From assembly GCA_965199495.1 (NCBI GenBank), contig CBDASK010000003.1, positions 3,040,001 to 3,104,000 on the forward strand: a stretch of 64,000 nt of DNA, written 5' to 3'. The notes beneath the pieces were generated by a model. It had not been told where the DNA came from and searched no databases. It saw only the letters and a list, made by a program, of their open reading frames with translations. The stretch's first letter is position 1, and the number at the start of each line of letters is the position of its first letter. This document shows positions 38,851 through 62,529 of this stretch, piece by piece. This DNA comes from Abditibacterium sp. (lineage in GTDB: Bacteria > Armatimonadota > Abditibacteriia > Abditibacteriales > Abditibacteriaceae). Made by a program: the position numbers and the translations under genes.

Positions 38851-41307
38851 ATGAAATCCCTTCTATTTCTCCTCCCGCTCGCGGGCGCCGGACTTTTCGC
38901 CGCCTGTTCGCAAACACAACCGCGCATTGTGCCCGCCGTGGCTGCTCCAAACCAGCAACCGATGCTGCGACAAATCCAATTCGAGAAAATGCCCAACCAG
39001 CCCGCGCCAAATGTGCCGCAGTTCGGGCTGTCGGTCGTGGACGACGCAGGCAAGGCTCTGGCGATTTGTCCGCTCCAGCGCACCGACGTGAAATCCGACA
39101 TCTCCGGGCAGATGGCGCGCGTCGTGGTGACGCAGCACTTCTCCAATTCGTCCGAGACGCCGATTGAGGCGCTTTATACTTTCCCGTTGCCGCACGATGC
39201 CGCCGTTGACGGCATGACTTTCAAAATCGGCGAGCGCACCATTAAAGGCGAAATCAAAAAGCGCGAGGAAGCCGCGCAGATTTACCAACAGGCCAAAGCC
39301 AACGGACAAAACGCGGCGTTATTGGATCAAGAGCGGCCCAATATCTTTTCGCAGCGCGTGGCCAACGTGATGCCCGGCCAGCAAATTCAGGTCGAAATTT
39401 CGTTTACCCAGCCCGTCGTCTATCGCGCCGGGCACTACGAATGGGAATTTCCCACCGTCGTCGGCCCGCGCTATACCACGCCGCAAACGCCCGACGCCGA
39501 CAAAATCACGCCGCCGGTTACGCCCGAAGGAACCAAAGCCGGGCACGATTTGACGATGCAGATTCATCTGACTTCGCCGGTCGCGCTGGGCGAAATCAGC
39601 TCGGCGCTGCACCCGATTACAATTGACAAAAGCGGCGACAACGAAGCCAATATCGCCTTGAAAGACGGCGCGACTTTGCCCAATAAAGATTTTATCTTGC
39701 GATTCGCGCCGCGCGATAACGCCCTCCAAACCGGTTTAGTGACGCGATCCGATGGCGAAGGCGGCGGCTGGTTTCAGTTGGTCGTGCAGCCACCGGCGCA
39801 GGCGCCCCAGTCGGGAATCGCGCGCAAAGAAATGGTTTTTGTGATTGACCAAACCGGCTCGCAGGCGGGCGCGCCCATCGAAAAAGCCAAGGAAACGATG
39901 CGCTATTGCATCCAAAATCTCAACGCGGGCGACACTTTTCAATTGCTCGGCTTCAACACCGATGTTCACCCGTGTTTTCCCAAGCCCGTCGAAGCCACGG
40001 CGGCTAACATCGCCAAAGCCAAAGCGTTTTTGGCGCCCTTAAACGGCAACGGCGGCACGGATATTCTCAAGGCGACCAATTACGCGCTTCAGATTCCCGC
40101 CGACCCGGATCGTCCGCGCATCGTCTGTTTCATGACCGATGGCTATGTCGGCAACGAAGCGGAAATCACCAAATTTATTCACGACAAAGGCAAAAGCGTA
40201 CGCATGTTTCCGTTTGGCGTGGGCAACTCAGTCAACCGTTTTCTGATCGATTCGATGGCGCGCGAAGGGCGCGGCGTGCCCGAATACGCGCTCTTGAATG
40301 AAGACGGGAAAAAGTTAGCGCAGCGTTTTTATAATCGCGTCGCGAACCCGGTTTTGTTGGACGTGAAACCCAATTGGAACGGCTTGCCCGTCGCCGAGGT
40401 TTACCCGAAAACCGTGCCCGATGTGTTCGAGAGCGGCCCCGTCGTTTTGACCGGACGTTTCACGCGCCCGGTCGCGGGCGAACTGATAGTGCGCGGTCGC
40501 TCGGCGGGCAAAGAATGGAGCAAACGCGTGCCGGTGGATTTCTCGCGCGCCGACCAAAAGAGCGGCGCCGGTTTGCCATCCGCGTGGGCGCGCCAGAAAA
40601 TCGAGGATTTGACCAATACTTCGCCCACCCAAACATCGGGCGAAACCGCCGACGATTTGCGCGCGCAAATCACCAATGTCGCGCTCGATTATCATCTGAT
40701 GAGCCAATACACCAGCTTCGTCGCGGTTGAACCGACGGTTGTCAACGTCGGCGGTCAGCAGAAAACCGTCGAAGTTCCCGTTGAGATGGCCGATGGCGTG
40801 AGTTACGAAGGCATCTTTGGCGCGCGCGGCGACGCCGTCGGTTCGCTGAGTTTGGCGCGTAGTTCGTTCGCTAATGGCAAGGCGACCGCGATGGCGGGCG
40901 CGGCGCCGATGATGCCCGCGACAGCCATGAAATTTCGCGCTAACATTGCCACCGATGGAATCGCGCTCAACGATAAAGAGACCGAGTTGCCCACGCCCGC
41001 GCAACTCGCGCAGATGACGCCCGCGCAACGTATCAAAACCGGGCGCGCCGCCAAGATGAGCGGGGCCGTCGCCAAACTCGCGGCGCAAACGCCCGCCGCG
41101 AAAGTCACGGTTCAACTGTGGCTTGCGCCTTTGGCAAACGAGGCTGCGCGCGCGCAATTCGCGGCGAAGTTGAAAGAGTTGGGTTGGACGCAAAGCGCGG
41201 TTTTGACGCCGGGCAAACTGGTTTTAGGCGAAATTTCGAGCGACCAACTCGACGCCGTGGCTGCGTTGCAGGGCGTGAAGTTGATCGAAACGCCGAAGTT
41301 CAAATAA
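38851..41307 (+). CDS. VIT + von Willebrand factor A domain lipoprotein
   Basis: Lipobox FAAC; EALYTFPLP, LLDQERPNIF; MIDAS DQTGSQ..GGT..MTDG; LMSQYTSFVAV. Confidence 0.88.
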   Translation: MKSLLFLLPLAGAGLFAACSQTQPRIVPAVAAPNQQPMLRQIQFEKMPNQPAPNVPQFGLSVVDDAGKALAICPLQRTDVKSDISGQMARVVVTQHFSNSSETPIEALYTFPLPHDAAVDGMTFKIGERTIKGEIKKREEAAQIYQQAKANGQNAALLDQERPNIFSQRVANVMPGQQIQVEISFTQPVVYRAGHYEWEFPTVVGPRYTTPQTPDADKITPPVTPEGTKAGHDLTMQIHLTSPVALGEISSALHPITIDKSGDNEANIALKDGATLPNKDFILRFAPRDNALQTGLVTRSDGEGGGWFQLVVQPPAQAPQSGIARKEMVFVIDQTGSQAGAPIEKAKETMRYCIQNLNAGDTFQLLGFNTDVHPCFPKPVEATAANIAKAKAFLAPLNGNGGTDILKATNYALQIPADPDRPRIVCFMTDGYVGNEAEITKFIHDKGKSVRMFPFGVGNSVNRFLIDSMAREGRGVPEYALLNEDGKKLAQRFYNRVANPVLLDVKPNWNGLPVAEVYPKTVPDVFESGPVVLTGRFTRPVAGELIVRGRSAGKEWSKRVPVDFSRADQKSGAGLPSAWARQKIEDLTNTSPTQTSGETADDLRAQITNVALDYHLMSQYTSFVAVEPTVVNVGGQQKTVEVPVEMADGVSYEGIFGARGDAVGSLSLARSSFANGKATAMAGAAPMMPATAMKFRANIATDGIALNDKETELPTPAQLAQMTPAQRIKTGRAAKMSGAVAKLAAQTPAAKVTVQLWLAPLANEAARAQFAAKLKELGWTQSAVLTPGKLVLGEISSDQLDAVAALQGVKLIETPKFK

Positions 41308-41445: not shown

Positions 41446-42426
41446 TTACTGCTGTTGCTGAACCATCTCTTCCATATCGTCGGCGAAATTAAGCGCGCTA
41501 TCGGGAATGGACATCCAGGCGGCGGCGCCAACTGGCTCCATCTCTTCGGGCTTGGGCGCATCGGCGAGCGTGACAGTCACGGCGACTTGCAGTTCGGCTT
41601 TGGTCTTGCCGCGATAAATGCCGTGCGTCGGCGGCACATCGGCGTAGTCGCGGCCAATTGCGGTGCGAATGTGACGGCCCGTCGCGAACAATTTATTCGT
41701 TGGGTCGAAACCGATCCAACCACTGCTGCCCTCAACGTCGCCGGGAAAAAGCGCCTCGACCCACGCGTGCGTGGCATCGGCCACGCTGCGGTCGGCGGAG
41801 TTTTCGCGGTGATACAAATAGCCCGAAACATAGCGCGCTGGCACGCCCAAATCGCGCAACAACGCGATCATGATGTGACTGAAATCCTGGCAGACGCCCT
41901 TGCGCGCTTCCAGAGCCACGTCAATCGGCGAATCGGCGCGCGTGTAACGCTGCACGTAGGCGAATTTTTCGTAAACCGCTTCGTTCAAATCAATCGCGAC
42001 TTGAAGGGGATTCGCACTGCGACTCAGACCGATTTCGGTTTTGAATTCCTGCAATAGAGGCGTCATAAAACAGAACTTCGACGGCGTCAGGTAATCCCAA
42101 TTGTCGGCGTTTTGATTCATGGCATCGAGCGCGTCCCAACCGGGCGCGCCGTCGGGTTGCGGCAACAATCCGTCGTCGTCCACTTCGACTAACGTTTCGG
42201 CGATGATGTTGAGCGCCGTGTGCGCGCCGGGAATATCGAAGTGATGCACGATGTTGCCCAAAAAATCGCGCCGCGCGAAAATGCGCGCGCGCGGATCGGT
42301 CGTCAACTCAAATTGGCGAACGGCCTGCGCCGCTTCGGAGCGCGGCTGCATCACGACTTCCATGACGCTCTGGCGCACAGGCTCGGAGTAACGGAATCGG
42401 GTGGAATGGCGGATGGAATAGAACAT
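41446..42426 (-). CDS. Transglutaminase family protein (bacterial N-terminal domain + TGc)
   Basis: IRHSTRFRYSEPV, DFLGNIVH, GVCQDFSH, HAWVE, GFDPTN and GRDYADV motifs. Confidence 0.92.
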   Translation of the reverse strand: MFYSIRHSTRFRYSEPVRQSVMEVVMQPRSEAAQAVRQFELTTDPRARIFARRDFLGNIVHHFDIPGAHTALNIIAETLVEVDDDGLLPQPDGAPGWDALDAMNQNADNWDYLTPSKFCFMTPLLQEFKTEIGLSRSANPLQVAIDLNEAVYEKFAYVQRYTRADSPIDVALEARKGVCQDFSHIMIALLRDLGVPARYVSGYLYHRENSADRSVADATHAWVEALFPGDVEGSSGWIGFDPTNKLFATGRHIRTAIGRDYADVPPTHGIYRGKTKAELQVAVTVTLADAPKPEEMEPVGAAAWMSIPDSALNFADDMEEMVQQQQ

Positions 42427-42430
42427 TTTT

Positions 42431-42560
42431 TAGGGTGGCAAGTGGCAAGTGACAGGTTTCAAGTGGCAGGAGCCGGACAGTCGAAGGCGCCAAAGTTACC
42501 CCGAAAGGCCGCGCTCTTTACCGCTTGTCACTTGTTACCTGACACTTGTCACCTTCCCTA
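42431..42560. repeat. Inverted blocks of heptamer repeats (GTGGCAA...CTTGTCA)
   Basis: TAGG GTGGCAA GTGGCAA GTGACAG GTTTCAA GTGGCAG ... CTTGTCA CTTGTTA CCTGACA CTTGTCA..CCCTA. Confidence 0.7.
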
Positions 42561-43508
42561 CGCCACCATCGCGGATTCGACGGTGTAGCCGATGTAGGCG
42601 CCAAAAAGCGCGCCGTGAATTTGGCCGCATTGGCCGCGCACATCGGTCAAAAATTCGGGCAAGTCGCCCGACATAATATCTTCGACGCTGGAATAATAGA
42701 GCATCGCGCGCAGTTTGCCCGCCGCGCGCAACAATCGCGTGTCTTTGCGGCGGCCCGTCAGCGTGGCGATGCCTTCGAGCGCGTGTTCGATTTGGTCGGC
42801 GCAAAACCGCACGCTACGCGGCGTTTCCTCGTCCAAAAGCATAAATTCGATAATGCGTTTAGGCCGCAAATCGGCGGTGTATTGGCGACAATACGCCTCG
42901 AAACTGGTGCAGCCACGCAGCAAACCGACCCATTCCAAATACGACGACTCGGAAGAGCCACCGGCAGTGAGCGAGGGCGCGTGAACGCGAATCATGTTGG
43001 TCGTGGCTGAGGCGCGCTCCAGGTTTTTGCCGACGCGAAGGAACAGATACGCCTCGCCGTGCGCGAAAGTTTCTTCGGTCACGCCGTGAATCAGGTGCAT
43101 CGCCTCTTTGACATCGGCGTAGAAATCGCCGGGCGATTCGGCCCAGGTTTTCTGAATATCGGGCGCGCGCACCTTGAGATACAACCGGTTGAGCTTTTCG
43201 TACATATCGGTCGAAATCTGCTCGCGAATCTGGCGGGCGTTTTCGCGCGCCGAGCTGATGGATTTCACGATGGAATTATCGGCCTCAAACGTCAGATAAC
43301 GCGCCAAAGCGTTGGCATCGTCCAGCGAACGATCTTCGGGCAATTGAACGTTGAGACCTTCGACCAACAGCGATTGCAGGTTGGCGCCCGAATACTGCCC
43401 TTGATCGAGCATCAGGTTGAGATGAACGTCCACCACGCGCGCCTTAAATTCGGCGCGTTCGAGGTAGCGGCTCATCCAGTAAAGACTGTCAGCGACTCGT
43501 GAAAGCAT
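42558..43508 (-). CDS. Alpha-E domain protein (DUF403)
   Basis: MLSRVADSLYWMSRYLERAE, ARENARQIRE, GKNLERA and PRSVRF motifs; start ATG 43508. Confidence 0.92.
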   Translation of the reverse strand: MLSRVADSLYWMSRYLERAEFKARVVDVHLNLMLDQGQYSGANLQSLLVEGLNVQLPEDRSLDDANALARYLTFEADNSIVKSISSARENARQIREQISTDMYEKLNRLYLKVRAPDIQKTWAESPGDFYADVKEAMHLIHGVTEETFAHGEAYLFLRVGKNLERASATTNMIRVHAPSLTAGGSSESSYLEWVGLLRGCTSFEAYCRQYTADLRPKRIIEFMLLDEETPRSVRFCADQIEHALEGIATLTGRRKDTRLLRAAGKLRAMLYYSSVEDIMSGDLPEFLTDVRGQCGQIHGALFGAYIGYTVESAMVA

Positions 43509-43545
43509 AGTTTTTGGGGGATTGGAGATTTGGTGGTGAATTTGA

Positions 43546-43710
43546 CGTTTTTCCCTCACCCGGCTTCGTTCCTCAGCCACCCTCTCCCGGAGGGAGAAGG
43601 TTTTCTGGCGCTTCATCGTTTGAGAAATCTCTTGGTGATTGAGGTCGCAAAGTAACCTTCTCCCTCCGGGAGAGGGTGGCTGAGGAACGAAGCCGGGTGA
43701 GGGAAAAACG
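43546..43710. repeat. Long inverted repeat, CCCTCACCC...CCTCTCCC family
   Basis: Perfect 57-bp arms 43546-43602 / 43654-43710; degenerate half copy at about 48150-48190. Confidence 0.88.
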
Positions 43711-43721
43711 CCCGCATTTGT

Positions 43722-45233
43722 TTATTCGTAAAGCACCCACGTATCTTTCGACCCGCCGCCCTGCGACGAGTTGACGACCAGACTACCGCGCTTGAACGCC
43801 ACGCGCGTCAAACCGCCCGGCACCAGTTGCACGCGTTCGCCAAACAAAACGAACGGGCGCAAATCAATGCAACGTGGCTCGACGCGGCCATCAATAAAGC
43901 AGGGCGCGCGCGACAGCGAAATCGTCGGTTGCGCGATGTAATTGCGCGGGTCGGCTTTAATCTTTTCGGCGAACTCGTCTTGCTCGGCTTTGGTCGAATG
44001 CGGCCCAATCAACATTCCGTAGCCGCCCGCTTCACCGACGGCTTTGACGACCAATTTGTCGAGATTTCCCAAAACATAACTTAATTCGTTCGGGTTCGCG
44101 CACAAAAACGTTTTGACGTTGGGCAAAATCGCATCTTGATCGAGATAATACTTGATAATCGCCGGAACATACGCATAGACCGCCTTATCATCAGCCACGC
44201 CGGTGCCAAGGGCGTTGGAAAGTCCGACGTTTCCGGCGCGATACGCGTTGAGCAAGCCAGGCACGCCCAGACTCGAATCGGGACGAAAGGCGAGCGGATC
44301 GAGAAAATCGTCGTCAATACGGCGATAAATTACGTCAACGCGCCGCAAACCGGCGGTCGTGCGCATATAAACCACGTTATCGTGAACCAACAAATCGCGT
44401 CCTTCGACCAATTCAACGCCCATCTGACGCGCTAAAAACGTATGCTCGAAATAAGCCGAATTGTAGGCGCCCGGCGTTAAAACCACAACCGTCGGATCGG
44501 AAACGTGAGTCGGTGCGAGCGCGCGCAACGTGGACAATAAAACCTGCGCGTAATGATCAATCGGGCGGACGGCGTAATTGCGAAACAGTTTGGGGAAAAC
44601 CTGTTTGATGATCTGCCGCGAAGTCAGCATATAACTGACGCCCGATGGCACGCGTAGATTATCTTCCAAAACGGTGAAAGTGCCCTGTTCGTCGCGAATG
44701 ATGTCCGAGCCGCAAATCGAAACCCAGATGTCGTTGGGCGGACGCACGCCGCGCAGTTCGCGGCGATAATGTTTGCAGCCGTAAATCAATTCGCGCGGAA
44801 TAATGCCATCTTTGAAGATTTGGCCTTCGCCGTAAATATCTTTGAGAAACAGATTGAGCGCCGTTAAACGCTGCGCCAGACCTTTCTCGATAACGCTCCA
44901 CTCGTCCGAAGTGATGATGCGCGGCAGCAAATCGTAGGGAAAAATTCGTTCGGTTCCGCCATCGTTGCCGTAAACCGTAAAAGTGATGCCCTGATTGAGA
45001 AACGACAGATCGGCGGTCTTTTGATATTCTTCGAGTTCGCCGGGTTCGATGTCGCTCAACCGGTTTTGCAGCGGCGCATACGATGCCCGTGGCTCCTCGG
45101 ATTGCGCGAACATTTCGTCGTAGAACTTCGGATCGAAGTCGTAATTCGCGAAGGGCGAGCCAGCATTTTGCAACGGGTGCATCGGCTCAAACTTATTGAA
45201 GGGCGCAAATTCGAGCGGCGTAATATCGGACAT
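43722..45233 (-). CDS. Circularly permuted type 2 ATP-grasp protein
   Basis: [35 protein letters not shown] and [15 protein letters not shown] motifs. Confidence 0.93.
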
Positions 45234-48208: not shown

Positions 48209-48919
48209 TTAATTATCCATCTTATCCGGCGTCGTGGGCATCGTCGTGGTGCCCGGCGTCGTGCCGTTCATCGCGGGCGTTTTGGTCGGATCCATCATCA
48301 TGCCGTTGTTCATCGCTGGTTTGGGCAGTTTCGCTAACTCTTTGCTGGCCATATCGAGATGGTTTTGCTCGGTTTTGGCATACGTTTCCATCAAACTGGT
48401 GAACTCTTTATCCGTGCTGGCTTTGATGGCGTCATTGGCTTTGCGCACATCGTCGGCGTTGATGTTGACGGCTTCTTGCAGATACGCGCGGTCGAAATCG
48501 TCGCCCGCGTTGTCGTCCATCAATTTTTGCAATTTGCTCTGGTTGTCATCCGTCATCGTCAGAGGCAACGTGAGGCCGCGCTTATTGGCCTGCATAAACA
48601 GCATTTTATTCAGGCGCGTATGATCGTCCATCAAGCGGAGCGCATATTTTTGCACGTCTTTGCCCTGCGCTTTTTGCACCGCCAGCTCGGAGGTAGCCTG
48701 ATCGTAGACGCTGCCCTGCGCGGTCTCCATCAAAAACTGTTTGTCGGCGTCGCTGGTCATCATGGATTTGTCCATCATGCCGGTCGCCATCGTCGTCGAG
48801 GACATCGCCTCGTTTTGCATTGTGTCGGCGGTGCCGGTGGCTGTTTGCGCGCCGGCGATGCCGCACAAAATCGTGGTGCCCAAAAGAGCAATTGCGGAAG
48901 GGGAAAGGGTCTGTTTCAT
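48209..48919 (-). CDS. DUF4142 domain secreted protein (ferritin-like)
   Basis: Signal peptide from ATG 48919; DKQFL..ELAVQKA..VQKYA..DDHT..FDRAYL..HLDMA. Confidence 0.85.
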   Translation of the reverse strand: MKQTLSPSAIALLGTTILCGIAGAQTATGTADTMQNEAMSSTTMATGMMDKSMMTSDADKQFLMETAQGSVYDQATSELAVQKAQGKDVQKYALRLMDDHTRLNKMLFMQANKRGLTLPLTMTDDNQSKLQKLMDDNAGDDFDRAYLQEAVNINADDVRKANDAIKASTDKEFTSLMETYAKTEQNHLDMASKELAKLPKPAMNNGMMMDPTKTPAMNGTTPGTTTMPTTPDKMDN

Positions 48920-49241
48920 TGGATTTAACCTGCTTATCCAGAAATCGTTCGAGCGTTGATCGCGAATCTTAAAATTCAAACGACAACCTCTTGCCCGGCT
49001 TCTTTGCACCTGTCGTGCCTCAAGTTGTCAATGCGCCAGAAAACCAAGAGTTTTCTTGGAAACGCAAAAAAGAACGCGCTTAAATCGCTGTTTTGGGCCA
49101 CTCGTGAAAAACAGCATTTGTAATTCCACAAATGTCAGAGAGCTTGAGATAACTTTTTGTGTCGCTTTGGCAATTACGTTTCAAATACAGGGTTAGCCCT
49201 TGCTCTCGCGCTCCATTTTGGCGCGATGGCGAGCTATTGCC

Positions 49242-49769
49242 ATGAAGAACACTCTTTTTTTCCAACCGCGTCTCTGGGGCGCACTGACGCTCTCGATTTT
49301 GACGATGGCTCCGTTACCGTTTGTGTTAGCGGTGCCCGGCGCTTCCACTGTGGCGCCGATTGTCAAAGCGCAGTTGCAGGCTTTCAAAGTTCTGCTGCAA
49401 AAAGATGGCGACGAAAAGCTGGCTGCTGCCGACATCGCCAATCCCGGCGATGTCATCGAGTATCAGGCGACCTATTCCAACGATAGCCAGCGCGCCGCGA
49501 CCAATCTCAACGCCACGTTGCCAATTCCCGCCGCGCTATCTTATGTGCCCAACACAGCCACGCCGAGTGGGTTCATGGCCTCGACCGACGCCAAGACCTT
49601 CGCGCCCGCGCCGCTCAAGCGCGCGGTTAAAGACGCCAATGGCAAAACCGTGACCGTTCTGGTGCCGTTTTCCGAATATCGCGCGTTGCGTTGGAACGTG
49701 AAACAGTTGGCGCCCGGCGCCGATTTCAAGGTCAGCGCGCGCGCCAGCGTGCCCAAAGTCGGCAAATAA
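49242..49769 (+). CDS. Small secreted single DUF11-like domain protein (putative pilus chaperone/cap)
   Basis: Signal peptide from ATG 49242; PGDVIEYQATYSN..IP..LSYV..LRWNVKQLAPG. Confidence 0.75.
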   Translation: MKNTLFFQPRLWGALTLSILTMAPLPFVLAVPGASTVAPIVKAQLQAFKVLLQKDGDEKLAAADIANPGDVIEYQATYSNDSQRAATNLNATLPIPAALSYVPNTATPSGFMASTDAKTFAPAPLKRAVKDANGKTVTVLVPFSEYRALRWNVKQLAPGADFKVSARASVPKVGK

Positions 49770-49889: not shown

Positions 49890-52538
49890 ATGACCCAAAC
49901 TCCTTCTCCCTCGCGTTTAAAAACGCTCAAGCGCGCCATGCCCTTCGTGGCATTGGCCATGTCCGCTGGCTTTGTGGCCGCGCCCGCGTGGGCACAGGCT
50001 CCGCGCGCTGGAACTTCCATCGGCAACCAGGCGACCGCCACCTATAACGACGGCTCCAACATCCCGCGCGACGTGCAGTCGAACAGCGTGACGACCCTCG
50101 TTCAGCAGGTCGCTGGCGTTGACCTGACCGATCCGCGCACCATCAACGCGGCGCCCGGCGCGCCCATCGCGTTCCCGCACACCATTCAGAACACGGGCAA
50201 CGGCAACGATTCGTTCAACATCGGCGTGACCGAAAGCACGGGCGATGACTTCAATATCGGTTATCAGGTCTACGCCGACGCCAACCAGGACGGCGTGCCC
50301 GACAATAACACGCCCATCACCGTGACGCCGTCGTTGCAGCCGGGCGAGAAGTTCAACTTCGTCGTCGTCGGCACGGTGCCCGCGAATCAGGCGGCGACCA
50401 AAAACGCCAGCATCACCGTCACCGCGACTTCGACGACGACCAGCACGACCAACGACGCCAACGCCGACAAGGTGATCGTCACCAGCAATGCGGTTATCAA
50501 CGTGGTGAAATCGGTGAGCGCGCCGGTTATCAACACGACGACCAAGGTCGCGACCTATACCTACACGCTGACCTATACCAACAACTCGAACGTGAATTCT
50601 GGCGCCGTTGCCCTGAGCGACACGCTGGATGCGCGTTTGGCTTATAAAGCCGCTTCGGGTTTGTGGAGTGTTTCGGGCACGACGGCGCTGGGCGACAACG
50701 CTGGCAACGCCGACGATCCAGCGGGCATCACCTATGCTCGCAACGCGCAGTTGATTACGGCGACCATCGCGAACGTTCCGGCGCGTAGCACGGGCCGCGT
50801 TTCGTTCTCGGTGGACGTGGCTCCCACGACGGCTCCGGGCTTGATTCCCAACTTCGCCACCTTCGCCTACGACGACGACAACGATGGTAACACCGCCACG
50901 ACCGGGACGGCTTCGGTCAATGGCACGACCAACACGGTAGATGTGAACGTCGGTCAGGCGCCCCTCGTCGCCATCACCAGCCAATCGCAAGGCCCGGTGC
51001 CTCAGGGTTCGACGGTTGTGTTCACCAACACCGTGACCAACAACGGTAACGGTAACGATGTCTTCAACATCACCCTTTCGCCATCGGGCACGCCGTTCCC
51101 TGCGGGCACCGTCTTCCAGTTGTTCCAGCCCGGCGGCGCGGCGGCTTTGCTCGATTCCAATGGCGATGGCATTCCCGATACCGGCCCGATCCTCGCTGGC
51201 GGCACCTATAACGTGATCGTCAAGGCGATTTTGCCTCCGACGACCTCCGGCACCGGCCCCTTCGTCGAAAACGTGATCGCGACCTCGACGACCGGCGCCA
51301 AACCCGCCGCAACCGGCACCGACACGGTGACTTCAATCACCAAATCGGCGGTGGACATCACCAACCGCGACGCCAGCAACAACCGCATTGACGAAACCAC
51401 CCCCGGCGTCACCAATCCGGTTTTGACGCGCACCAGTGGCCCCGGCACCGTCGTGACCTTCCCGCTGTCGGCCAACAACAAGTCGGCTGTCAACGATAAC
51501 TATGCGCTGTCGTTTGTGCCCAACCCGGCTCTGCCCGCCGGCTTTAGCGTCGTCTTCAAAGACCTCAACGGCAAAGTCATCACCAATACCGGCAACATCG
51601 CGCCCGTTGTTCCCGATCCGGCAAATCCAGGCAGCTTCACCAAAGGCGGCTTCTTCGATTATGTCGCCGAAGTCACCATTCCCGCCGGTGCCACGCCGCA
51701 GGACATCGCATTGGCTTTCGCCATCACGTCGGGCGCGTCGGGCGCGACCGATACCGTTAACGACAAATTGACCGTTAGCCCGTTCAACGCGCTGACGATC
51801 ACGCCCAACAACCAAGGCCAGGTCTTCCCCGGCTCGTCGGTCAACTATGCGCACGTCATCACCAACGATGGCAACACCGACGAAACCAACGTCGTCGTGA
51901 CGGCGACCGATTCCCTGGCGGGCTTCTCGTCGGTCATCTACGCCGACAATGGCGCTGGAACCCACGCGGGTAACGGCATCCTCGATCCCGACGAATTGGC
52001 GGCTGGCCCATTGGCAGCCACCGGCATCCCTACGCTCGCTCCCAAAGCGAACTTCCCGATTATCGTTGTGGTCTTTGGCCCCTCGAACCAGTTCACATCG
52101 GGCGCCGTTGACACCACGACCGTGACGGCGACCTCCGCCGGTGGCCGCACAGCCACGGCGACCGACACCACCACGATTGTGGCGGGCGATGTCGTGATGA
52201 CCAAATCGCAATCGGTCAATGGCGCCGCCGCCACGCAGGGCAACGCCGTTGCCAAGCCCGGCGATGTCATTCGCTACACGATTACCGTGCGCAACACCGG
52301 TGGCGCTCCGGTCAACACCGTCGTGGTTTCGGACACCACCCCGGCGTTCACGACCTACAGCGACACCAACAGCGCTGGCACCGCCGATCCGGCTTCGTTC
52401 ACCATCGGCACCGCCGCCGCCGTGGCTGCCACCTCCGCTCCGACCAACGGCGTGGCGGGCACCATCAAATGGACGATTCCCACGCTCAACCCCGGCGAAG
52501 TCGCCACAGTGACCTTCAACGTGAAGATCAACAAATAA
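49890..52538 (+). CDS. Secreted multi-Ig DUF11-repeat protein (putative shaft pilin)
   Basis: Signal peptide ending AWA; Thr/Asn-rich Ig repeats; DxNxDG loops; strongly C-ending codons suggesting high expression. Confidence 0.85.
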   Translation: MTQTPSPSRLKTLKRAMPFVALAMSAGFVAAPAWAQAPRAGTSIGNQATATYNDGSNIPRDVQSNSVTTLVQQVAGVDLTDPRTINAAPGAPIAFPHTIQNTGNGNDSFNIGVTESTGDDFNIGYQVYADANQDGVPDNNTPITVTPSLQPGEKFNFVVVGTVPANQAATKNASITVTATSTTTSTTNDANADKVIVTSNAVINVVKSVSAPVINTTTKVATYTYTLTYTNNSNVNSGAVALSDTLDARLAYKAASGLWSVSGTTALGDNAGNADDPAGITYARNAQLITATIANVPARSTGRVSFSVDVAPTTAPGLIPNFATFAYDDDNDGNTATTGTASVNGTTNTVDVNVGQAPLVAITSQSQGPVPQGSTVVFTNTVTNNGNGNDVFNITLSPSGTPFPAGTVFQLFQPGGAAALLDSNGDGIPDTGPILAGGTYNVIVKAILPPTTSGTGPFVENVIATSTTGAKPAATGTDTVTSITKSAVDITNRDASNNRIDETTPGVTNPVLTRTSGPGTVVTFPLSANNKSAVNDNYALSFVPNPALPAGFSVVFKDLNGKVITNTGNIAPVVPDPANPGSFTKGGFFDYVAEVTIPAGATPQDIALAFAITSGASGATDTVNDKLTVSPFNALTITPNNQGQVFPGSSVNYAHVITNDGNTDETNVVVTATDSLAGFSSVIYADNGAGTHAGNGILDPDELAAGPLAATGIPTLAPKANFPIIVVVFGPSNQFTSGAVDTTTVTATSAGGRTATATDTTTIVAGDVVMTKSQSVNGAAATQGNAVAKPGDVIRYTITVRNTGGAPVNTVVVSDTTPAFTTYSDTNSAGTADPASFTIGTAAAVAATSAPTNGVAGTIKWTIPTLNPGEVATVTFNVKINK

Positions 52539-52898: not shown

Positions 52899-55800
52899 AT
52901 GAACGTTTTTGCTGCTCGCATCGCTCACCTCATTCGTCCCGCCACTTGCGCCCTGTTGGGCGCTGCCCTGATGGCCACTTTGGGCGGCGTGGCTGATGCC
53001 CAGACACCCAGCGCCGGAGTCGCGATCTCCAATCAGGCGAGCGCGAGCTACGAATTGGGCGATGTCATCGTCAACCTGCTTTCCAATCGCGTGCAGGTCA
53101 CCGTCGCGCCCGTCGAAGGGTTGCGCCTCACCGCCGACAACGCCAAACAGGTGCCCATCGGTGCGCCGGTTTCGTTTCCCCATCGCCTGACCAATACCGG
53201 CAACGTCGCGACTTCCTACAACTTCAACGTGAGCAACCAAACCGGCGACGATACCGATCTGTCGGATTTGCGCATTTATGGCGACCTTAACGGCAACGGC
53301 ATCGTGGACGAGGGCGAACCGCGCCTCGACAATGGCGCCGCGCCGGTTGGGTTGGAAGCCGGTCAATCCACCGATTTGTTGGTGACCGGCACCGTGCCCG
53401 TCACTGCCAGCGCCGGGCAAAGCGCGCGCGTCCAGCTCGAAGCCGTGACGCAAAACGCGACGGCGCGCGCGCAAAACGTGGACACAGCCACGGTGGCGCT
53501 GGGCGCCTCGGTCGAAGTGCGCAAAGAAGCCTCGCGCCAGAACGCTTCGCGCGGCGACCAGATTAGCTACGATTTGACCGCGATTTCGCGCGGCGGCGTC
53601 GCGCCCACGCCGACCAATTTAACCGTGGACGGCGCCGCGCGTGCCCTGGTTTTACTGCGCGATAGCGTGCCCGCCAACACGACGTTGGTCAGTTGGACCA
53701 AAACCGGCAACGGCCTGTTGCTCTATCATCGCATCGGCGACGCCGCCAACGCCTACGTCACCGCGCAACCCGATAGCGCCGCTGGCGTTATCACCGATGG
53801 CGTCGCGCTGGGATTGGACAACTTTATTCCCAACTCGACGGTGCGCGCCACGCTCACGGTGCGCGTCAATAACAACGCCAGCGGCAGTTTCGATAACACC
53901 GCCGATGTGATTTATCGCGAGGCGGGCGCCGACCGTACCATCAGCGCGCCGTCGAACACCGTGGGTGTCGCCGTGCCCATCGCGCCGCCGACATTGGCCT
54001 ATTACACGAGCGCGGGTTACACGCGCGAGGCGACGGTGACCGGTTTGAATCGCCCGCTGTTTTTGCAGGGCGACAGCGCCGCCTGTAACGTTGACCCGAC
54101 TGCCGTTGAGCGCGTGACGCTGACGTTGACTTCGACTTTGACCGGCGATTCGATTCGCACGCAGATGATCGAAACCGGCCCCAATACGGGCATTTTTCGC
54201 GTCGAAAATCCGATTCCCACCTCCGACGGCGCCGCCGTGGCTGATGATGGCGTCTTGCAGATTTTGCGCGACGACGTTTTGCAAGCGCGCCTGAGCGGTT
54301 GCGGCACCGCCGACGCCGTCGCGCGCATTTTGGTTGACCCGCTCGGCGTGGTTTACGACGCGCGCACCAACCAACCCGTGAGCGGCGCGCGCGTCACTTT
54401 AATTGACGCCGCGACCGGCCAACCTGCGCGCGTCTTCGATTTTGATGGCGTGACGTCACGTCCATCAACAGTGACAACCGGCGCCGATGGCGTGTTTCAG
54501 TTCCCGCAGGTCGCGCCCGGTCGCTATCGTTTGCAAATCGAGCCGCCCGCCAATTATCTGTTTCCCTCGAAATTGGCGCCCGCCAACCAGCCACCGGGTC
54601 GCACGATTGACGCGTCGGGTTCCTATGGCGGCGAGTTCGCCGTTGACGCCGCGACTGGCGCCGTCGTTTTGGATGTGCCGCTCGATCCGCCGCAGGGCAC
54701 CGGATTGTTCGTGGACAAAATCGCCCGCTCGCGCGACGCCGAAATCGGCGGCACGGTGGATTATCAGGTCACCATTCGCAACGTCGCGGGTGTCGCCGTC
54801 AACAACGTTCAATTATTGGACGGTCTGCCGCGCGGCCTGACCTACGTCGCGGGCAGCGCCCGCCGCCAGAGCGCGAGCGGCGCCAACGGCACGCCCGGCA
54901 TTTTCGCCGCGTTGCCCGATCCGCGCATCGAAAACGTGCGCGCTTTGACCTTTAATATCGGCACATTGGCCAAAGACGAATCGGCAATTATCACCTATCG
55001 CACACTGATCGGCCCCGGCACGCCGACCGGCAAAGTGCGCAATAGCGCGCGCGCCACCGGTGCCACAAACTTTGATTCGTATACATCCAACACGGCCAGC
55101 GCGATTGTCGAGATTCGCGGCGGCGTCTTCACCACGCGCGGCGTTTTGATGGGCCGCGTCTTCGTGGACTCCAATAACAATGGTCGCTTCGACCGCGACG
55201 AATTGGCGGTGCCCGGCGCGCGCATCTTTTTGGAAGATGGCACTTACGCCGTCACCGACGGCGACGGACAATGGACGATTTACGGCGTTTTGCCCCTGAC
55301 GCACGTCGTCAAAATTGACCGCACCACGTTACCAATCGGCGCCACGCTCAAACCGCTCACGGTGAATTACGCGGGCAAAGGCGATTCGGTTTTCGCCGAC
55401 CTGAAAAACAGCGAACTCCAGCGCATCAACTTCGCGCTGAGTAGCACCACCGAGGCTCAAATTGCCGACGTGAAAGCGCGCATCGCCAAGGGTCAAAACG
55501 AGGCGCCCGAAATCACCACGCAACTGCAAAATACGCTCACGACTACGCCCAACACGCAACTCGGCGACACCCGCGCGCAACCCGCGACCGGCGTTGTCGG
55601 CGGCGTGGCTGGCCCGACGAACCAGAATCAGACCTCGCGCACCGTGCAATCGAACGCGCCCGCAGGCATTGACGCGCGCCCGCTTCGCACGGCGGGCGAT
55701 GGCCCGCTCGACGGCCAGTTCGCCCCAGCCACGGCGCCTTCGCTGGAAGCGGGCGCGCGCGAAATCGAAGAGCTTTTGGCGACGCTGCAACCCGGCATCG

Positions 55801-58800
55801 GCATTTTGGGCTACAAAGACGGCGACACTTTGCTGAGCGATCAGATCAACGTGCGCGTCAAGGGCGACGCGGGCACCACGCTGAAACTGACGCTCAACGA
55901 CAAAGCGGTGGACGATGACCGCATCAGCGTGCGTTCGGAAGATAGCAAGCGCGGCGTGCAGGTTCGCGAATATATCGGCCTGAAACTGCGCGCGGGCGAG
56001 AATAATTTGCAACTCAGCCAGATCGATTCGTTTGGCGTGGCGCGCGGCGAAGCGTCGGTGAAGCTCGTTGCCCCCGGTTCGTTGGGCCGCTTGAAATTGA
56101 CGGTGCCAAACGTTGGCGTGCCCGCCGACGGACAGACGGGGACGAAAATTAACGTCGAGTTGGTGGACGACAAAGGCGTGCGCGTCACGGCCCGCACGCC
56201 GATCACGCTCGAAGCCAGCGCGGGCCGTTGGAATGTGCGCGACCTCAACGACACGCAGCCCGGCGTGCAGGTTTTCATCGAAGGCGGGCAGGGCAGCTTT
56301 GAACTGATTCCGCCGTTTGAACCCGGCCAGGCCGTCGTCAAAGTCGCGGCGGGCATTATTTCAGCCGACGCCAAAGTGTCGTTCGTGCCGTATTTGCGCC
56401 CGGTTGTGGCGGCGGGCATTTTCGAGGGCCAATTCGGCTTCAAGGCCAAAGGCGCTTCGCAAATGCCCATCGCGGCTTTCGAGCGCGAATTGCAATCCAT
56501 CACCGGCAACGGCGGCGGACGCGCGGCGGGCTATATTAAGGGCCGCATTCAGGGCAAATATCTGTTGTCAATGCGCTTCGATACGCAGTCAGCCGAAGAC
56601 AACCGGCTATTTCGCGACATTCAGCCCGACGAGTTTTATCCGGTTTATGGCGACAGTTCGACCAAAGGTTTCGACGCGCAGTCCACCGGCAAACTCTACA
56701 TTCGCGTGGACAAAGATCATTCCTACGCGCTCTATGGCGATTTCACGACTTATGCGGCGGACGGATCGGAATCGCTGGGACGCTACGGGCGCGCTTTAAC
56801 CGGCGGTCAAATTCACAGCGAGGACGACAAGTATTCGGCGACGGCGTTTGTTTCGCGCACCAGCGCTTCGCGTATCGTGCAGGAAAAGCGCGCCAATGGC
56901 ACGAGCGGCGTTTACCAACTGGGCGTTTCGGATATTCGCCCGCAATCGGAAATCGTCGAGATTATTGTTCGCGACCGCAACAATCCGGGCCGCGTCATCA
57001 GCGCCACGCAGCAGACGCGTTTCACCGACTACACGCTCGACGGCTTTACTTACGGTCTGCTGTTTCGCCGCCCGATTCCGTCGTTTGACGAAGATGGCAA
57101 TCCGATCTTCATCCGCGTGACCTACGAGCGCGAAACCGGCGGGCCCGACTTCACCGTCTCCGGCGTGGCTGCTCAATATAAAATCGGCAACCGTTTGCAG
57201 GTTGGCGCGGGCGTCGTGCAGGACGACGACCCGACGCGCAAGATGAATATGCGCTCGGTCAACGGCGCGTTGCGTTTGAGCGACGACACGATTTTGGTCG
57301 CCGAATACGCCCAAACCGACACGCCCGAATTCGGTACCGCCGGGGCTTCGCGCTTTGAACTGCGCAAAGACGGCGCGAATTTTCAGGCGCGCGCTTATAC
57401 CGGCACGGCATCGCTCGGCTTCAACAATCCCGAATCGGCCTTGACGCGTGGACGCAGCGAAAGCGGCGTGCAGTTGTCGGCCAAAATCGGCGCCAAAACG
57501 CAGGTCAGCGCCGAAGCGATTCGCACCAAAGACGGCCAGAGCGGCGCCCAAACGCAGGGCGTGCAAGTCGGTTTGGATCACGCGTTTACCAACGATATTC
57601 GCGGCGGCATCGGCATCCGCAACGCCAGTGGCGATGCGTCGGCCAGCTTCGGCGGAACCGGGCAGGACAACTTGAGCTTCACCTCGATTTACGGGCGCTT
57701 GAACGCGCGCGTCGGAGCCAAATCGAACGCTTTCACGCGTTACGAGCAGCAACTGGGCGGCGGCAATCGCTCGCTTTCCCTTGGCGCCGATTATCAGATC
57801 GCACCGCAAACGCGACTCTACGCGATTCACGAATTCTTCGATTCGCCGCTCTCGCTTTACGCTTTGGGCGATACGCAGCGCCGCTACGGCACGCGTCTGG
57901 GCATCGAGACGGCGTATATGCGCGGCGGCACTTTGTTCAGCGAATATCGTCTGGCGGGCGGCGTTGACGGGCGCACCGCGCAGGCGGCGATTGGGCTGCG
58001 CAACCAGTGGAAGTTGGGTCAGGGCATCGGCGTTTCGACCAGTCTGGAGAACACGCGTAATTTGAATGGCGGCATCAATAACGTTGGTTCAACCGCTAAT
58101 TTGGGCGGCGACAATGGCACGGCGGCTTCGATTGGTTTCGAGTCGCTCGGCTCGGACAAATTGAAGTGGACGACGCGTTTGGAAGGTCGCGATGGACAGA
58201 GCAAGACCTTAACAGCCACGGCGGGCGCGGCCTATCAGGCGTCGCGCGATTTGACGATGCTGGGCCGCGCGGCCTACGCCAAATCGAGCGCGGGCGGGTT
58301 CACCGGCACTGGCGGCGTGGCTGCTGTTGGCGGCTTCGACCAGAAGCAGACGCGCGTGCAGTTCGGGCTGGCTTATCGGCCCGTTAAAAGCGACCGTTTT
58401 GTGGCGCTACTCAAATATGAACTGCGCGATGGCGACGATCCGTCGGGCATCGGCGTGCGCTTGCAGCGCCGCCAGAACATCATCAGCGCCGACGCTAACT
58501 ATTTGGTTTCGCAGTCGTTGCAGGCGCGCCTGCACTACGCGTTCAAAAACAGCCGCGACAACACCGATGGCTTGCTGACATCCAGCTCGGCGCACTTGCT
58601 GAGCGGGCGTTTGTCCAAAGACATTACGCGCCGATTGAACCTGTCGCTTTTGGGTTCGACGCTGTGGAACGGCGATTCGCGTCAGGTCGCTTACGGCATC
58701 GAAGCCGGTTACGGTTTGACCGATAATCTGCTGCTCTCGCTCGGTTATAATTTCAGCGAACTGCGCAACCGCGACTTCGCCGACGAGACGCTGGGCAAAG

Positions 58801-59027
58801 GTTTTTATCTGCGCATGCGACTGAAATTCGACGAAGATTTGTTTAGCAACGTGAAAGCGTTCCAGCGCGCGCCCATCGCCAGCAACGCGCAGCCGTTTGT
58901 GCCAGTCACGCAGGGCGGTTTTGGCGGCGGCATCATCGGCAGCAGCGAGTCGGCGGGGTTGGATAGTTTTTCCGGCACGGCGGCGCCCAGAATTGGCGGC
59001 GGCAACGCTATCGGAGGTGTCCGTTAA
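52899..59027 (+). CDS. Large outer-membrane protein: DUF11 and SdrD-B-like domains plus C-terminal beta-barrel (putative pilus anchor/usher)
   Basis: Signal peptide from ATG 52899; GRVFVDSNNNG domain; long amphipathic-strand region ending LSLGYNF..GFYLRMRLKFDE. Confidence 0.82.
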   Translation: MNVFAARIAHLIRPATCALLGAALMATLGGVADAQTPSAGVAISNQASASYELGDVIVNLLSNRVQVTVAPVEGLRLTADNAKQVPIGAPVSFPHRLTNTGNVATSYNFNVSNQTGDDTDLSDLRIYGDLNGNGIVDEGEPRLDNGAAPVGLEAGQSTDLLVTGTVPVTASAGQSARVQLEAVTQNATARAQNVDTATVALGASVEVRKEASRQNASRGDQISYDLTAISRGGVAPTPTNLTVDGAARALVLLRDSVPANTTLVSWTKTGNGLLLYHRIGDAANAYVTAQPDSAAGVITDGVALGLDNFIPNSTVRATLTVRVNNNASGSFDNTADVIYREAGADRTISAPSNTVGVAVPIAPPTLAYYTSAGYTREATVTGLNRPLFLQGDSAACNVDPTAVERVTLTLTSTLTGDSIRTQMIETGPNTGIFRVENPIPTSDGAAVADDGVLQILRDDVLQARLSGCGTADAVARILVDPLGVVYDARTNQPVSGARVTLIDAATGQPARVFDFDGVTSRPSTVTTGADGVFQFPQVAPGRYRLQIEPPANYLFPSKLAPANQPPGRTIDASGSYGGEFAVDAATGAVVLDVPLDPPQGTGLFVDKIARSRDAEIGGTVDYQVTIRNVAGVAVNNVQLLDGLPRGLTYVAGSARRQSASGANGTPGIFAALPDPRIENVRALTFNIGTLAKDESAIITYRTLIGPGTPTGKVRNSARATGATNFDSYTSNTASAIVEIRGGVFTTRGVLMGRVFVDSNNNGRFDRDELAVPGARIFLEDGTYAVTDGDGQWTIYGVLPLTHVVKIDRTTLPIGATLKPLTVNYAGKGDSVFADLKNSELQRINFALSSTTEAQIADVKARIAKGQNEAPEITTQLQNTLTTTPNTQLGDTRAQPATGVVGGVAGPTNQNQTSRTVQSNAPAGIDARPLRTAGDGPLDGQFAPATAPSLEAGAREIEELLATLQPGIGILGYKDGDTLLSDQINVRVKGDAGTTLKLTLNDKAVDDDRISVRSEDSKRGVQVREYIGLKLRAGENNLQLSQIDSFGVARGEASVKLVAPGSLGRLKLTVPNVGVPADGQTGTKINVELVDDKGVRVTARTPITLEASAGRWNVRDLNDTQPGVQVFIEGGQGSFELIPPFEPGQAVVKVAAGIISADAKVSFVPYLRPVVAAGIFEGQFGFKAKGASQMPIAAFERELQSITGNGGGRAAGYIKGRIQGKYLLSMRFDTQSAEDNRLFRDIQPDEFYPVYGDSSTKGFDAQSTGKLYIRVDKDHSYALYGDFTTYAADGSESLGRYGRALTGGQIHSEDDKYSATAFVSRTSASRIVQEKRANGTSGVYQLGVSDIRPQSEIVEIIVRDRNNPGRVISATQQTRFTDYTLDGFTYGLLFRRPIPSFDEDGNPIFIRVTYERETGGPDFTVSGVAAQYKIGNRLQVGAGVVQDDDPTRKMNMRSVNGALRLSDDTILVAEYAQTDTPEFGTAGASRFELRKDGANFQARAYTGTASLGFNNPESALTRGRSESGVQLSAKIGAKTQVSAEAIRTKDGQSGAQTQGVQVGLDHAFTNDIRGGIGIRNASGDASASFGGTGQDNLSFTSIYGRLNARVGAKSNAFTRYEQQLGGGNRSLSLGADYQIAPQTRLYAIHEFFDSPLSLYALGDTQRRYGTRLGIETAYMRGGTLFSEYRLAGGVDGRTAQAAIGLRNQWKLGQGIGVSTSLENTRNLNGGINNVGSTANLGGDNGTAASIGFESLGSDKLKWTTRLEGRDGQSKTLTATAGAAYQASRDLTMLGRAAYAKSSAGGFTGTGGVAAVGGFDQKQTRVQFGLAYRPVKSDRFVALLKYELRDGDDPSGIGVRLQRRQNIISADANYLVSQSLQARLHYAFKNSRDNTDGLLTSSSAHLLSGRLSKDITRRLNLSLLGSTLWNGDSRQVAYGIEAGYGLTDNLLLSLGYNFSELRNRDFADETLGKGFYLRMRLKFDEDLFSNVKAFQRAPIASNAQPFVPVTQGGFGGGIIGSSESAGLDSFSGTAAPRIGGGNAIGGVR

Positions 59028-59049
59028 GCGCTCGCGCTCGGAGAATATC

Positions 59050-62000: not shown

Positions 62001-62529
62001 CCGCGATAGCAACGGTAACGGCGTTTTGGATGGCGGCGACGCGCAGATCACCGGGCCGGTCGCCGTGGCTGCTGGCGTGCCGATCACGATATTCCTGCAA
62101 AACTTCATCCCGACAACCGCCGCCAATGGCGCGCAGGATAAGCTGACGGTGACAGCGAACTTCACGCCAACAACGGGCGCGGTTCAGTCCATCGCGCGCT
62201 CAGACTTGACGACTGTCGCCGCCAATCAAGGTTTGCTGTTGAGCAAAGCCGTGGACAAAACGACCGCCAAAAGCGGCGACGTTCTGGTTTACACCATCAC
62301 CTATCGCAATACGGGCGCCGAGGCTTTGACCAACCTCGTCGTCAAAGACGCGACGCCTTCTTACACAACATTCCAGAGCGCAACCACCGGGCCGCTCCCG
62401 ACTGGTTTAACGGCGCCAACGATCGCCGCGCCGAGCGCCAACGCCAAAGGCGCCGTGACGTGGACGTTCGGCGGCATTTTGAATCCGGGCCAGAGCGGAA
62501 CGGTGACATTTAATGTGAAGGTTCAGTAA
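59050..62529 (+). CDS. Secreted Gly-rich adhesin with DUF11 and SdrD-B-like stalk (putative tip adhesin)
   Basis: GGAG RBS then ATG 59050; signal peptide; GGGGG-rich head; SGTVYLDANRN and SGSVFED domains; C-terminal DUF11. Confidence 0.82.
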   Translation: MNLKRFKQLVARAALGLTLVAASLGNARAARAVCGTPGKDGPFTGGGVVNSYFASAQSASAGDRTVILSSSPRADGAQTGISVGDLLLLWQTQGATINSTNNESYGSGNAANNARGYTSLNGAGNYEFVRVTAVNGGTLTVAGDGAGGGLRFSYSYDPTAIPRQTFQVVRVPQYSSMTLTSALAPVKFDGTTGGGIFVDVAGTVTFSTTTGASVYQTGFRGGFAPINDAVNSNSNSVYPIPNKPRNGAGKGEGIAGRPRFVWNETTDTDNGVEGYPGGDGGRGAPGNAGGGGNAHNSGGGGGSNSGAGGRGGYPWEGQPSQAGTVFDTVANTNGTTRQVPRAWGQGAAALLNGGAAFTDHLFMGGGGGGGDANNATTGVKGGVGGGVIILRAGSFAGATTIDARGDAGDRGVFANAPDGAGGGGAGGTVILVSRNSSSASITVNAQGGAGGNTVNDPIDPGSGANNGTTSHGPGGGGGGGTVIYSGLSVTANLAGGTAGKTNDGGTGSISHGAAGGATGLTAPLTAGQGNGLTDNGDGCAATLTVTKSTTTPSVAAGTNATYQVTIANTGTGSAAGVVVDDALPVPFAYDPASPATIIYTVGASGPATLAGTNNTANGVTTTRFGTAGDSTKTFFVGAGASLTLTFAVKTTGALPAKYDNSATVRFAEPRRTDATILVSPGGKYANGTTVTGSNYNGTLAANTAEDVTIQGSVSGTVYLDANRNATLDSTESGANINNLFVKAVLSGQASAAQAVPVTAATGAFSFSGLAPGNYTLVLDDNATLTDITPALPAGYIGTESPGGTRQITVANQALQNQNFGLFNGAQISGSVFEDGGNGTGPGLGGVKVNLTKADGTIIDTTTTDASGNFAFKVPNSVGAGVLKVVEFNLSGYNSVSGNIGTTGGTYDQPTDIISFPYAAGSTYTGLKFGDSRGITFIGEDAKTGTAGSSVFYPHVFASQTAGNVTFTTAQLPTPANTGWSVVTFRDSNGNGVLDGGDAQITGPVAVAAGVPITIFLQNFIPTTAANGAQDKLTVTANFTPTTGAVQSIARSDLTTVAANQGLLLSKAVDKTTAKSGDVLVYTITYRNTGAEALTNLVVKDATPSYTTFQSATTGPLPTGLTAPTIAAPSANAKGAVTWTFGGILNPGQSGTVTFNVKVQ

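Follow-up and report, generated by a model that had tools for sequence, protein, structure and literature searches.

The window, a stretch of 64,000 nucleotides from an Abditibacterium sp. genome (contig CBDASK010000003.1, positions 3,040,001 to 3,104,000), carries a gene for a small protein at 49242-49769 on the plus strand, stop codon included. The gene was delimited from the list of open reading frames, a match to TIGR01451 and profile alignment (hhalign) to the acceptor domains described below. The reading frame coincides exactly with 49242-49769, starts with ATG and encodes 175 amino acids, and the homologues likewise start with MK. Three large genes, encoding the proteins referred to here as p882, p2089 and p1210, lie downstream on the same strand. 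Coordinates given below are on the plus strand except where the minus strand is stated.

The small protein begins with a signal-peptide-like N-terminus, and the remainder is one DUF11/CLIPPER-type domain. Residues 1-33 (49242-49340) were read by eye as a predicted Sec signal peptide, with K2 and R10 followed by a hydrophobic run and then VLA/VPG; pLDDT in the model of the protein ranges from <50 to 63 across this segment. A lipobox-like motif is found in just 6 of 146 relatives. Given the signal peptide seen by eye in the sequence, the protein is predicted to be exported and to reside in the periplasm.

The domain matches TIGR01451 (TIGR01451.2) over residues 62-110 with 33.0 bits (E 4.5e-8; cut-off 24), and Pfam DUF11 (PF01345) scores 23.5 bits, slightly below the cut-off of 24.6. 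According to the literature, DUF11/CLIPPER is a domain of fibrillar adhesins with an intramolecular isopeptide bond: catalysed by an Asp, a Lys of the first strand becomes linked to an Asn close to the end of the domain (Lys715, Asp748 and Asn806 in 9IFR); some members are without this triad (PMC12617251). The small family is single-copy in the Abditibacterium sp. genome, and its members are stand-alone proteins with a median length of 176.5 aa (n = 146). When longer proteins with fused domains were sought with an E-value limit of 1e-5, none came up, which is weak evidence. A PDB sequence search with the family profile gave no match below E 0.5, the Protein Atlas returned just the family's own unnamed or DUF11 clusters, and a promoter and terminator scan around the gene gave no signal exceeding that of shuffles.

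Donor hairpins, acceptor domains and barrel of the downstream genes

The first of the three large genes, p882 (49890-52538), encodes a putative shaft subunit with a signal peptide and a donor hairpin, which are followed by Ig-like domains and, at the C-terminus, by a truncated DUF11. The hairpin follows directly after the signal peptide (...AGTSIGNQATATYNDGSNIPRDVQSNSVTTLVQQ...) and was placed at residues 36-80 (49995-50129, ...IGNQATATYNDGSNIPRDVQSNSVTTLVQQ...) using an alignment of 73 sequences. The C-terminal acceptor domain (52146-52538) has both Lys and Asp. Its DUF11 match breaks off at position 85 of the 114 positions of the Pfam profile, and does so on the last residues of the protein.

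The second gene, p2089 (52899-59027; likely start ATG 52899, ~2042 aa), encodes a donor hairpin, several Ig-like domains, one complete DUF11 (profile positions 4-110) and a giant barrel. Its hairpin (53004-53132, ...ISNQASASYELGDVIVNLLSNRVQVTV...) was located by a match to the hairpin profile. The C-terminal 930 aa (56235-59024) were delimited based on the structure model, Foldseek and a conserved C-terminal motif; this region is all-beta and ends ...GFYLRMRLKFDEDLF. AlphaFold models it with ~40 long strands (pLDDT 71.6), and the best Foldseek matches are SlpA, MtrB, LptD, TonB-dependent receptors and SprA, with E values from 8e-8 to 1e-5 and a TM score of ~0.2. Pfam gave no match in these 930 residues, and the C-terminal motif ...G-x-Y-L-R-x-R-x-K-F-D-E is kept in relatives. 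Based on the model and its Foldseek matches, we would call the region a large outer-membrane barrel in general, and not specifically an usher.

The third gene, p1210 (59047-62529; likely start ATG 59047), encodes a putative tip with an AgmC_N-like head, no donor hairpin and a C-terminal acceptor domain. As in p882, the terminal DUF11 ends early, and Lys and Asp are found in the motif positions. The longest open reading frames of p2089 and p1210 start well upstream of the likely starts, at GTG 52758 and TTG 58897, respectively, and from TTG 58897 the p1210 frame would overlap that of p2089 by 131 bases. A stretch resembling a signal peptide comes after both ATG 52899 (MNVFAARIAHL...) and ATG 59047 (MNLKRFKQLV...).

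The donor hairpin was characterized using an alignment of 73 p882-type proteins, comprising those of 72 other loci and that of the window. Its consensus after the signal peptide is AAPPAGT-x-IGNQA-x-ATY-x-D...SN-x-V-x-T-x-VQQVA, and N11, A13, D19 and S29 of the hairpin are invariant (73/73). Searched against the 4.8-Mb genome, the hairpin profile matches only p882 (E 1.5e-21) and p2089 (E 5.6e-7). The genome census lists two donors (p882 and p2089), two sockets with Lys and Asp in the motif positions (p882 and p1210) and one inert socket, the small protein. From the resemblance of the motifs we infer that the hairpin may be the missing end of the truncated DUF11, so that one domain would be split between two proteins. 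When the hairpin was compared with the complete DUF11 of p2089 using hhalign, the second strand alone was aligned, with an E value of 0.13, and Pfam gave no match, to DUF11 or otherwise, in the 73 hairpins.

Relation of the small protein to the acceptor domains

The small family was represented by an alignment of 146 members, mostly representatives at 50% identity, drawn from a search that yielded 1517 matches with an E-value threshold of 1e-3 and 724 with 1e-10. For the acceptors, we aligned 63 C-terminal domains that p882-type proteins of other genomes carry. Based on hhalign, the two alignments match with 95.3% probability and an E value of 2.3e-8, and residues 65-175 of the small protein align to acceptor residues 35-130. 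The last strands coincide, with ADFKVSARASV of the small protein placed on EVATVTFNVKI of the acceptors; thus, the small protein and the acceptors both end at the same strand. A sequence-only reading of this DNA had proposed that the small protein aligns to the terminal acceptor domains, and the profile comparison, with its matched last strands, bears this out. All of the strings quoted in that reading were recovered from the small protein: AFK at residues 47-49, PGDVIEYQATYSN at 68-80, LNATLPIP at 89-96, LRWNVKQLAPG at 149-159 and FKVSARASV at 162-170.

The last strand corresponds to residues 161-169 (49722-49748) and contains R167, which is present in all 146 members of the small family. The median tail beyond R167 is 14 residues (n = 146), and the acceptor domains end 2-10 residues past their last strand. 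FKVSARASV is similar to VRNSARATG in the complete DUF11 of p2089 and was considered as an Asn strand in which the Asn had been replaced. This assignment was rejected because hhalign puts FKVSARASV on the last strand of the acceptors.

The site of the catalytic Asp is occupied by Leu93 (codon ttg, 49518-49520). In an alignment of four sequences, Leu93 aligns with the Asp of VVVSDTTP in p882, LVVKDATP in p1210 and VQLLDGLP in p2089, which agrees with the difference between LNATLPIP and the p882 and p1210 strings pointed out before. Across the small family this column holds L in 128 members, V in 11, I in 6 and M in one, and an acidic residue is found in 0/146, whereas the acceptors have Asp in 63/63. 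The loss of the Asp, for which the sequence-only reading had named an alignment of homologues as the check, thus extends to the entire family, and the check came out in favour of that reading.

The column of the reactive Lys of the acceptors has a different composition. In the small family it contains K in 100 members, R in 32, Q in 4 and other residues in 10 (K or R in 132 of the 146), and in the acceptors K in 60/63, the remaining three being alignment gaps. In the small protein of the window the residue is Lys49 (49386-49388). The equivalence of this position is taken from spacing only, because the local hhalign alignment begins at residue 65: K49 sits 19 residues ahead of the PGD motif and its p882 equivalent 18. 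Arg is unable to form an isopeptide bond. The full pattern of the Asn hairpin occurs in none of the 146 members, as had been claimed for the small protein itself, and a loose short match to the hairpin lies within the domain in one of them.

Compared with CLIPPER/DUF11 domains, the small protein passes the TIGR01451 cut-off and shares the motifs PGD-x-I-x-Y...N-x-G and (D/L)-x-x-P. It differs in having Leu in place of the Asp and no Asn strands, so that the triad is incomplete and the Lys position alone is kept. Furthermore, it has a 30-residue insertion and stands alone, whereas a CLIPPER domain closes on itself and is part of a stalk. Compared with the acceptor domains of p882 and p1210, the small family is alike by profile and by its end strand but is without the Asp and is not found at the C-terminus of a large, multi-domain secreted protein. 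Judged by its sequence, the small protein is a stand-alone acceptor-type CLIPPER/DUF11 domain in which Leu replaces the catalytic Asp.

The insertion (residues 118-147, 49593-49682) is ~30 residues long and specific to the family: it appears as a gap in the hhalign alignment, being present in the small family and absent from the acceptors, and it is modelled as a beta-hairpin. We delimited it from the hhalign gap, the model, column counts and direct coupling analysis (DCA). It contains nine of the 30 columns with an entropy of <1 bit (F120, P124, L125, R127, G134, V141, P142, Y146 and R147), and the well conserved and partly charged residues include R127, E145, Y146 and R147. The insertion possibly serves as a docking site, a lid or a clamp, and it is closely followed by R150, W151 and the invariant R167.

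Conservation of the cassette across genomes

A scan of genome contigs for the small gene identified 80 loci. According to the record titles, they come from Abditibacteriota, Acidobacteriota, Nitrospira, Eisenbacteria and many beta- and gammaproteobacteria, and also from Mariprofundaceae, Geobacteraceae, Verrucomicrobiota and Balneolaceae, and thus from many diderm phyla. Among the culturable carriers named there are Curvibacter gracilis ATCC BAA-807, Thauera sinica CGMCC 1.15731, Glaciimonas immobilis DSM 23240 and several Variovorax and Massilia strains. A p882-like gene begins ≤1.5 kb downstream on the same strand at 76 of the 80 loci, and a barrel region is found downstream at 57 of the 61 loci having at least 8 kb of downstream sequence. 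The cassette is conserved and opens with the gene for the small protein, followed by those for the shaft, the giant barrel and, commonly, the tip. Four of the 80 loci are exceptions with regard to the shaft gene: one ends too early (L077), and three are outside a cassette (L047, L062 and L071). For these orphan small genes, neither a shaft nor a barrel gene lies within 10 kb, and two of the three are in assemblies that also carry a canonical cassette (L064 and L072).

In a sample of 61 genomes from the phylum, the barrel occurs in five genomes and the small family in the same five, with E values of 1e-55 or better in four of them and 1.2e-13 in one. The sole other small-family match in this sample is weak and lies in a 724-aa frame. 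When the acceptor profile was used on five other genomes, the shaft socket was found, and in four of the five a large acceptor-ended open reading frame, like p1210, comes directly after the barrel gene. With a separate tip that has Lys and Asp here, and an acceptor-ended frame in those four genomes, a cap for the fibre appears to be already provided. In the genome of L049 (G065), contigs C48 and C89 carry three p882-type acceptor ends, the frames being 880, 906 and 915 aa long, so several shaft paralogues exist in some lineages.

Rates of divergence were compared using the two nearest relatives, loci L001 and L002. The small protein is 94% identical to its counterpart in L001 and 77% to that in L002; the corresponding values are 92% and 75% for p2089 but 75% and 61% for p882. 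The small protein therefore diverges like the barrel protein and more slowly than the shaft, which fits a part of the machinery better than an exposed part of the fibre.

There is no generally conserved gene upstream of the cassette among the 56 loci with at least 4.5 kb of upstream sequence, the commonest family being found at 13 of them. This family is a GAF-PAS histidine kinase (Pfam GAF, PAS, HisKA and HATPase_c), located within ~1 kb upstream of the small gene (for example, L003:7779-9326) and absent from the window. It is possible that this kinase regulates the cassette in those lineages. In the window, the gene directly upstream of the small gene is divergent and encodes a DUF4142 protein (48209-49009, minus strand; PF13628, E 5e-23), whose position is not conserved at other loci. 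Further upstream, 41446-45233 on the minus strand is a three-gene set unrelated to the fibre cassette that encodes a circularly permuted ATP-grasp protein (PF14403, E 2.7e-168), an Alpha-E protein (PF04168) and a transglutaminase-like protein (PF08379 and PF01841). A protein of 818 aa that looks secreted and has VIT and von Willebrand A domains (PF08487 and PF13768) is encoded at 38851-41307.

Proposed role of the small protein and comparison with known systems

The best explanation that we can offer, and one that we put forward tentatively, is that the small protein serves as a decoy socket, which would bind donor hairpins reversibly and escort them while they are in the periplasm. The N-terminal hairpins of p882 and p2089, with two strands and an invariant Asn, would supply what the truncated sockets miss. 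A plug would enter a socket, and Lys and Asn would then be joined with the Asp assisting. A chain of the form tip(p1210)-shaft(p882)n-anchor(p2089) would consume every plug and every Lys/Asp socket, and the inert socket would therefore have no permanent place in the finished fibre. The lack of a permanent place, together with the acid missing across the family, points to reversible binding of free plugs, as expected of an escort or chaperone.

The small protein would present the same socket without the chemistry and would capture hairpins as they leave the Sec channel, the hairpin being presumably the first part of the subunit to come out. Capture would prevent a hairpin from closing onto the C-terminal socket of its own subunit, and it would also prevent polymerisation in the periplasm onto other subunits. 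At the barrel, the small protein would yield the hairpin to a reactive socket, where formation of the bond would make the transfer irreversible. K or R at position 49 and the Arg-rich insertion may provide a non-covalent grip or, alternatively, a docking site for the barrel protein. The first place of the gene in the cassette, its co-occurrence with the barrel gene, the existence of a separate tip and the slow divergence of the protein all fit a helper role. The three orphan loci without a cassette among the 80 count against this explanation, as do the E value of 0.13 between the hairpin and the complete DUF11 of p2089 and the lack of Pfam matches in the hairpins. The sequence-only reading had interpreted the protein as a non-covalent chaperone or cap that might bind donor strands reversibly in the periplasm, and this interpretation is partly supported by our analysis.

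The features of a socket without chemistry apply equally to a protein that sits non-covalently on the free hairpin of the first shaft subunit, as a distal cap or initiator (a minimal tip or an opener of the barrel), and stays on the fibre. The first position of the gene in the cassette agrees with such a role, and fibres begun without p1210 would leave one hairpin unpaired. We nevertheless consider a cap or initiator unlikely, given that a dedicated Lys/Asp tip is encoded here and that a large acceptor-ended open reading frame follows the barrel gene in most of the other genomes compared. A covalent lock would be harmless for a permanent cap, yet the acid is kept in no member of the family; nothing would account for its loss in such a cap, and an escort is favoured. 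The divergence of the small protein is also barrel-like, unlike that of the exposed shaft.

The escort explanation must also be weighed against the predicted structure of the small protein. The AlphaFold model, made with 24 homologues, is a compact single domain of nine strands with pLDDT >90 at residues 41-170. Two of the strands, 126-130 and 136-140, derive from the insertion, and based on this model the extra hairpin could fill the socket in cis. Such a compact and confident stand-alone model counts against reading the protein as a hairpin socket. It speaks for a self-contained accessory domain that takes no hairpin, in which the insertion would complete the fold in cis and a conserved Arg/Tyr/Glu surface would bind another partner, for instance a periplasmic part of the barrel protein, peptidoglycan or a glycan; that the insertion is rich in the best conserved, partly charged residues (R127, E145, Y146 and R147) is in keeping with this. 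The truncation of acceptor type would then be left unexplained, and so would the retention of K or R at the Lys position in most of the family.

Residue couplings bear on the same question. A mean-field DCA of 329 sequences (Meff 237), which is noisy, gives strand A a single neighbour, strand B. The insertion is coupled within itself (126/138 and 128/136) and lies near strands D and B. That no partner was found at the free edge of strand A argues against completion of the fold by the insertion and is weak evidence for an open edge. In the same noisy analysis, A166 is coupled to both L93 and K49, L149 to L93 and L156 to K49, which weakly suggests a buried K or R next to a hydrophobic replacement at the catalytic site. 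On balance, we regard the accessory domain as improbable.

Structure searches with the small-protein model returned matches of a general kind. Foldseek found none at E 1e-3 or better, and VIA searches gave generic Ig-like matches with Z <8 (best 7.7), including mu-homology domains, alpha-2-macroglobulin domains, Gram-positive pilins and TTHA1873; a literature search on TTHA1873 yielded nothing of use. With regard to the CnaA-like beta-sandwich fold of 9IFR, the beta-sandwich model scored E 1.5e-2 with Foldseek, and VIA-align gave a Z of 7.1 and an rmsd of 2.7 over 90 of 123 residues, tied with many unrelated Ig-like domains. The generic nature of the fold matches counts against the escort explanation.

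It is very improbable that the small protein is a regulator of length or termination that masks the hairpin of p2089 and delays the end of the fibre and its anchoring; this hairpin is a distinct variant and the small gene co-occurs with the barrel gene, but such a regulator is a special case of the escort.

A fuller form of the escort explanation is a possibility that we raise with still greater reserve. The small protein would be a natural 'SpyDock' and the first pilus chaperone that offers a groove: in a surface fibre of diderm bacteria that would weld itself from split CLIPPER domains, the unreactive socket would keep hold of the reactive plug hairpins and hand them over at the giant barrel, and the covalent bond would drive ATP-free assembly. 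SpyDock is SpyCatcher2.1 with the substitutions E77A and S49C; the catalytic Glu is removed, and the protein binds SpyTag reversibly with a Kd of 0.073-0.75 uM (PMC6465384). By its sequence, the small protein would likewise be the socket half of a putative split isopeptide domain without the catalytic acid. By analogy, the precedent that removal of the acid leaves a reversible, sub-micromolar binder supports the escort explanation. Unlike the small family, SpyDock is engineered, originates from CnaB2, binds a one-strand tag and has no biological role, whereas in the small family the loss of the acid is natural, fixed across the family and found in an operon.

To our knowledge, known fibre chaperones donate strands. 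PapD and FimC are similar to the small protein in predicted purpose, as small, Ig-like secreted proteins that are encoded with fibre subunits and an outer-membrane pore and keep the subunits unpolymerised. A PapD-type chaperone consists of two domains and fills the groove of the subunit with a strand of its own (PMC11821415). In contrast, the small protein has one domain and, judging from the sequence, would offer a groove to the donor strands of the subunit, with reverse polarity. A Pfam search of the small protein with E values up to 0.1 found DUF11 alone, with no PapD_N, PapD_C or other chaperone domain. The comparison with chaperone-usher pili is also limited by the barrel of p2089, which resembles large outer-membrane barrels generally and not ushers specifically.

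The linkage proposed for the fibre has parallels elsewhere. In BsaA of Clostridium perfringens, 'donor-strand exchange and lock' has been described, in which an N-terminal strand enters the next subunit and an intermolecular Asn-Lys bond forms, catalysed by an acidic residue; there are also paralogues that do not have the triad, and the parts of that account drawn on here describe no socket-only helper (bioRxiv 10.1101/2024.11.04.621531). BsaA and TapA/TasA differ from the present system in having the TasA fold, monoderm hosts and no outer-membrane barrel, and TapA donates a strand. TapA is reportedly a strand-complementing helper for TasA, and an intermolecular 'exchange and lock' is said to occur in archaeal threads as well.

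We know of two solutions to premature polymerisation of fibres, namely strand-donating chaperones (Pap/Fim and TapA) and self-capping prodomains. If the small protein is an escort, outer-membrane bacteria would have a third, a decoy socket without chemistry. The escort explanation would also provide a testable handle on a widespread cassette, and the cassette would hold naturally evolved reversible and irreversible partners for one peptide, of use to ligation tools of the Spy type. In literature searches, neither the cassette nor the small protein turned up in any paper. The DUF11 'grappling hook' of Litorilinea, a giant protein of tandem repeats, is distinct from the small protein described here.
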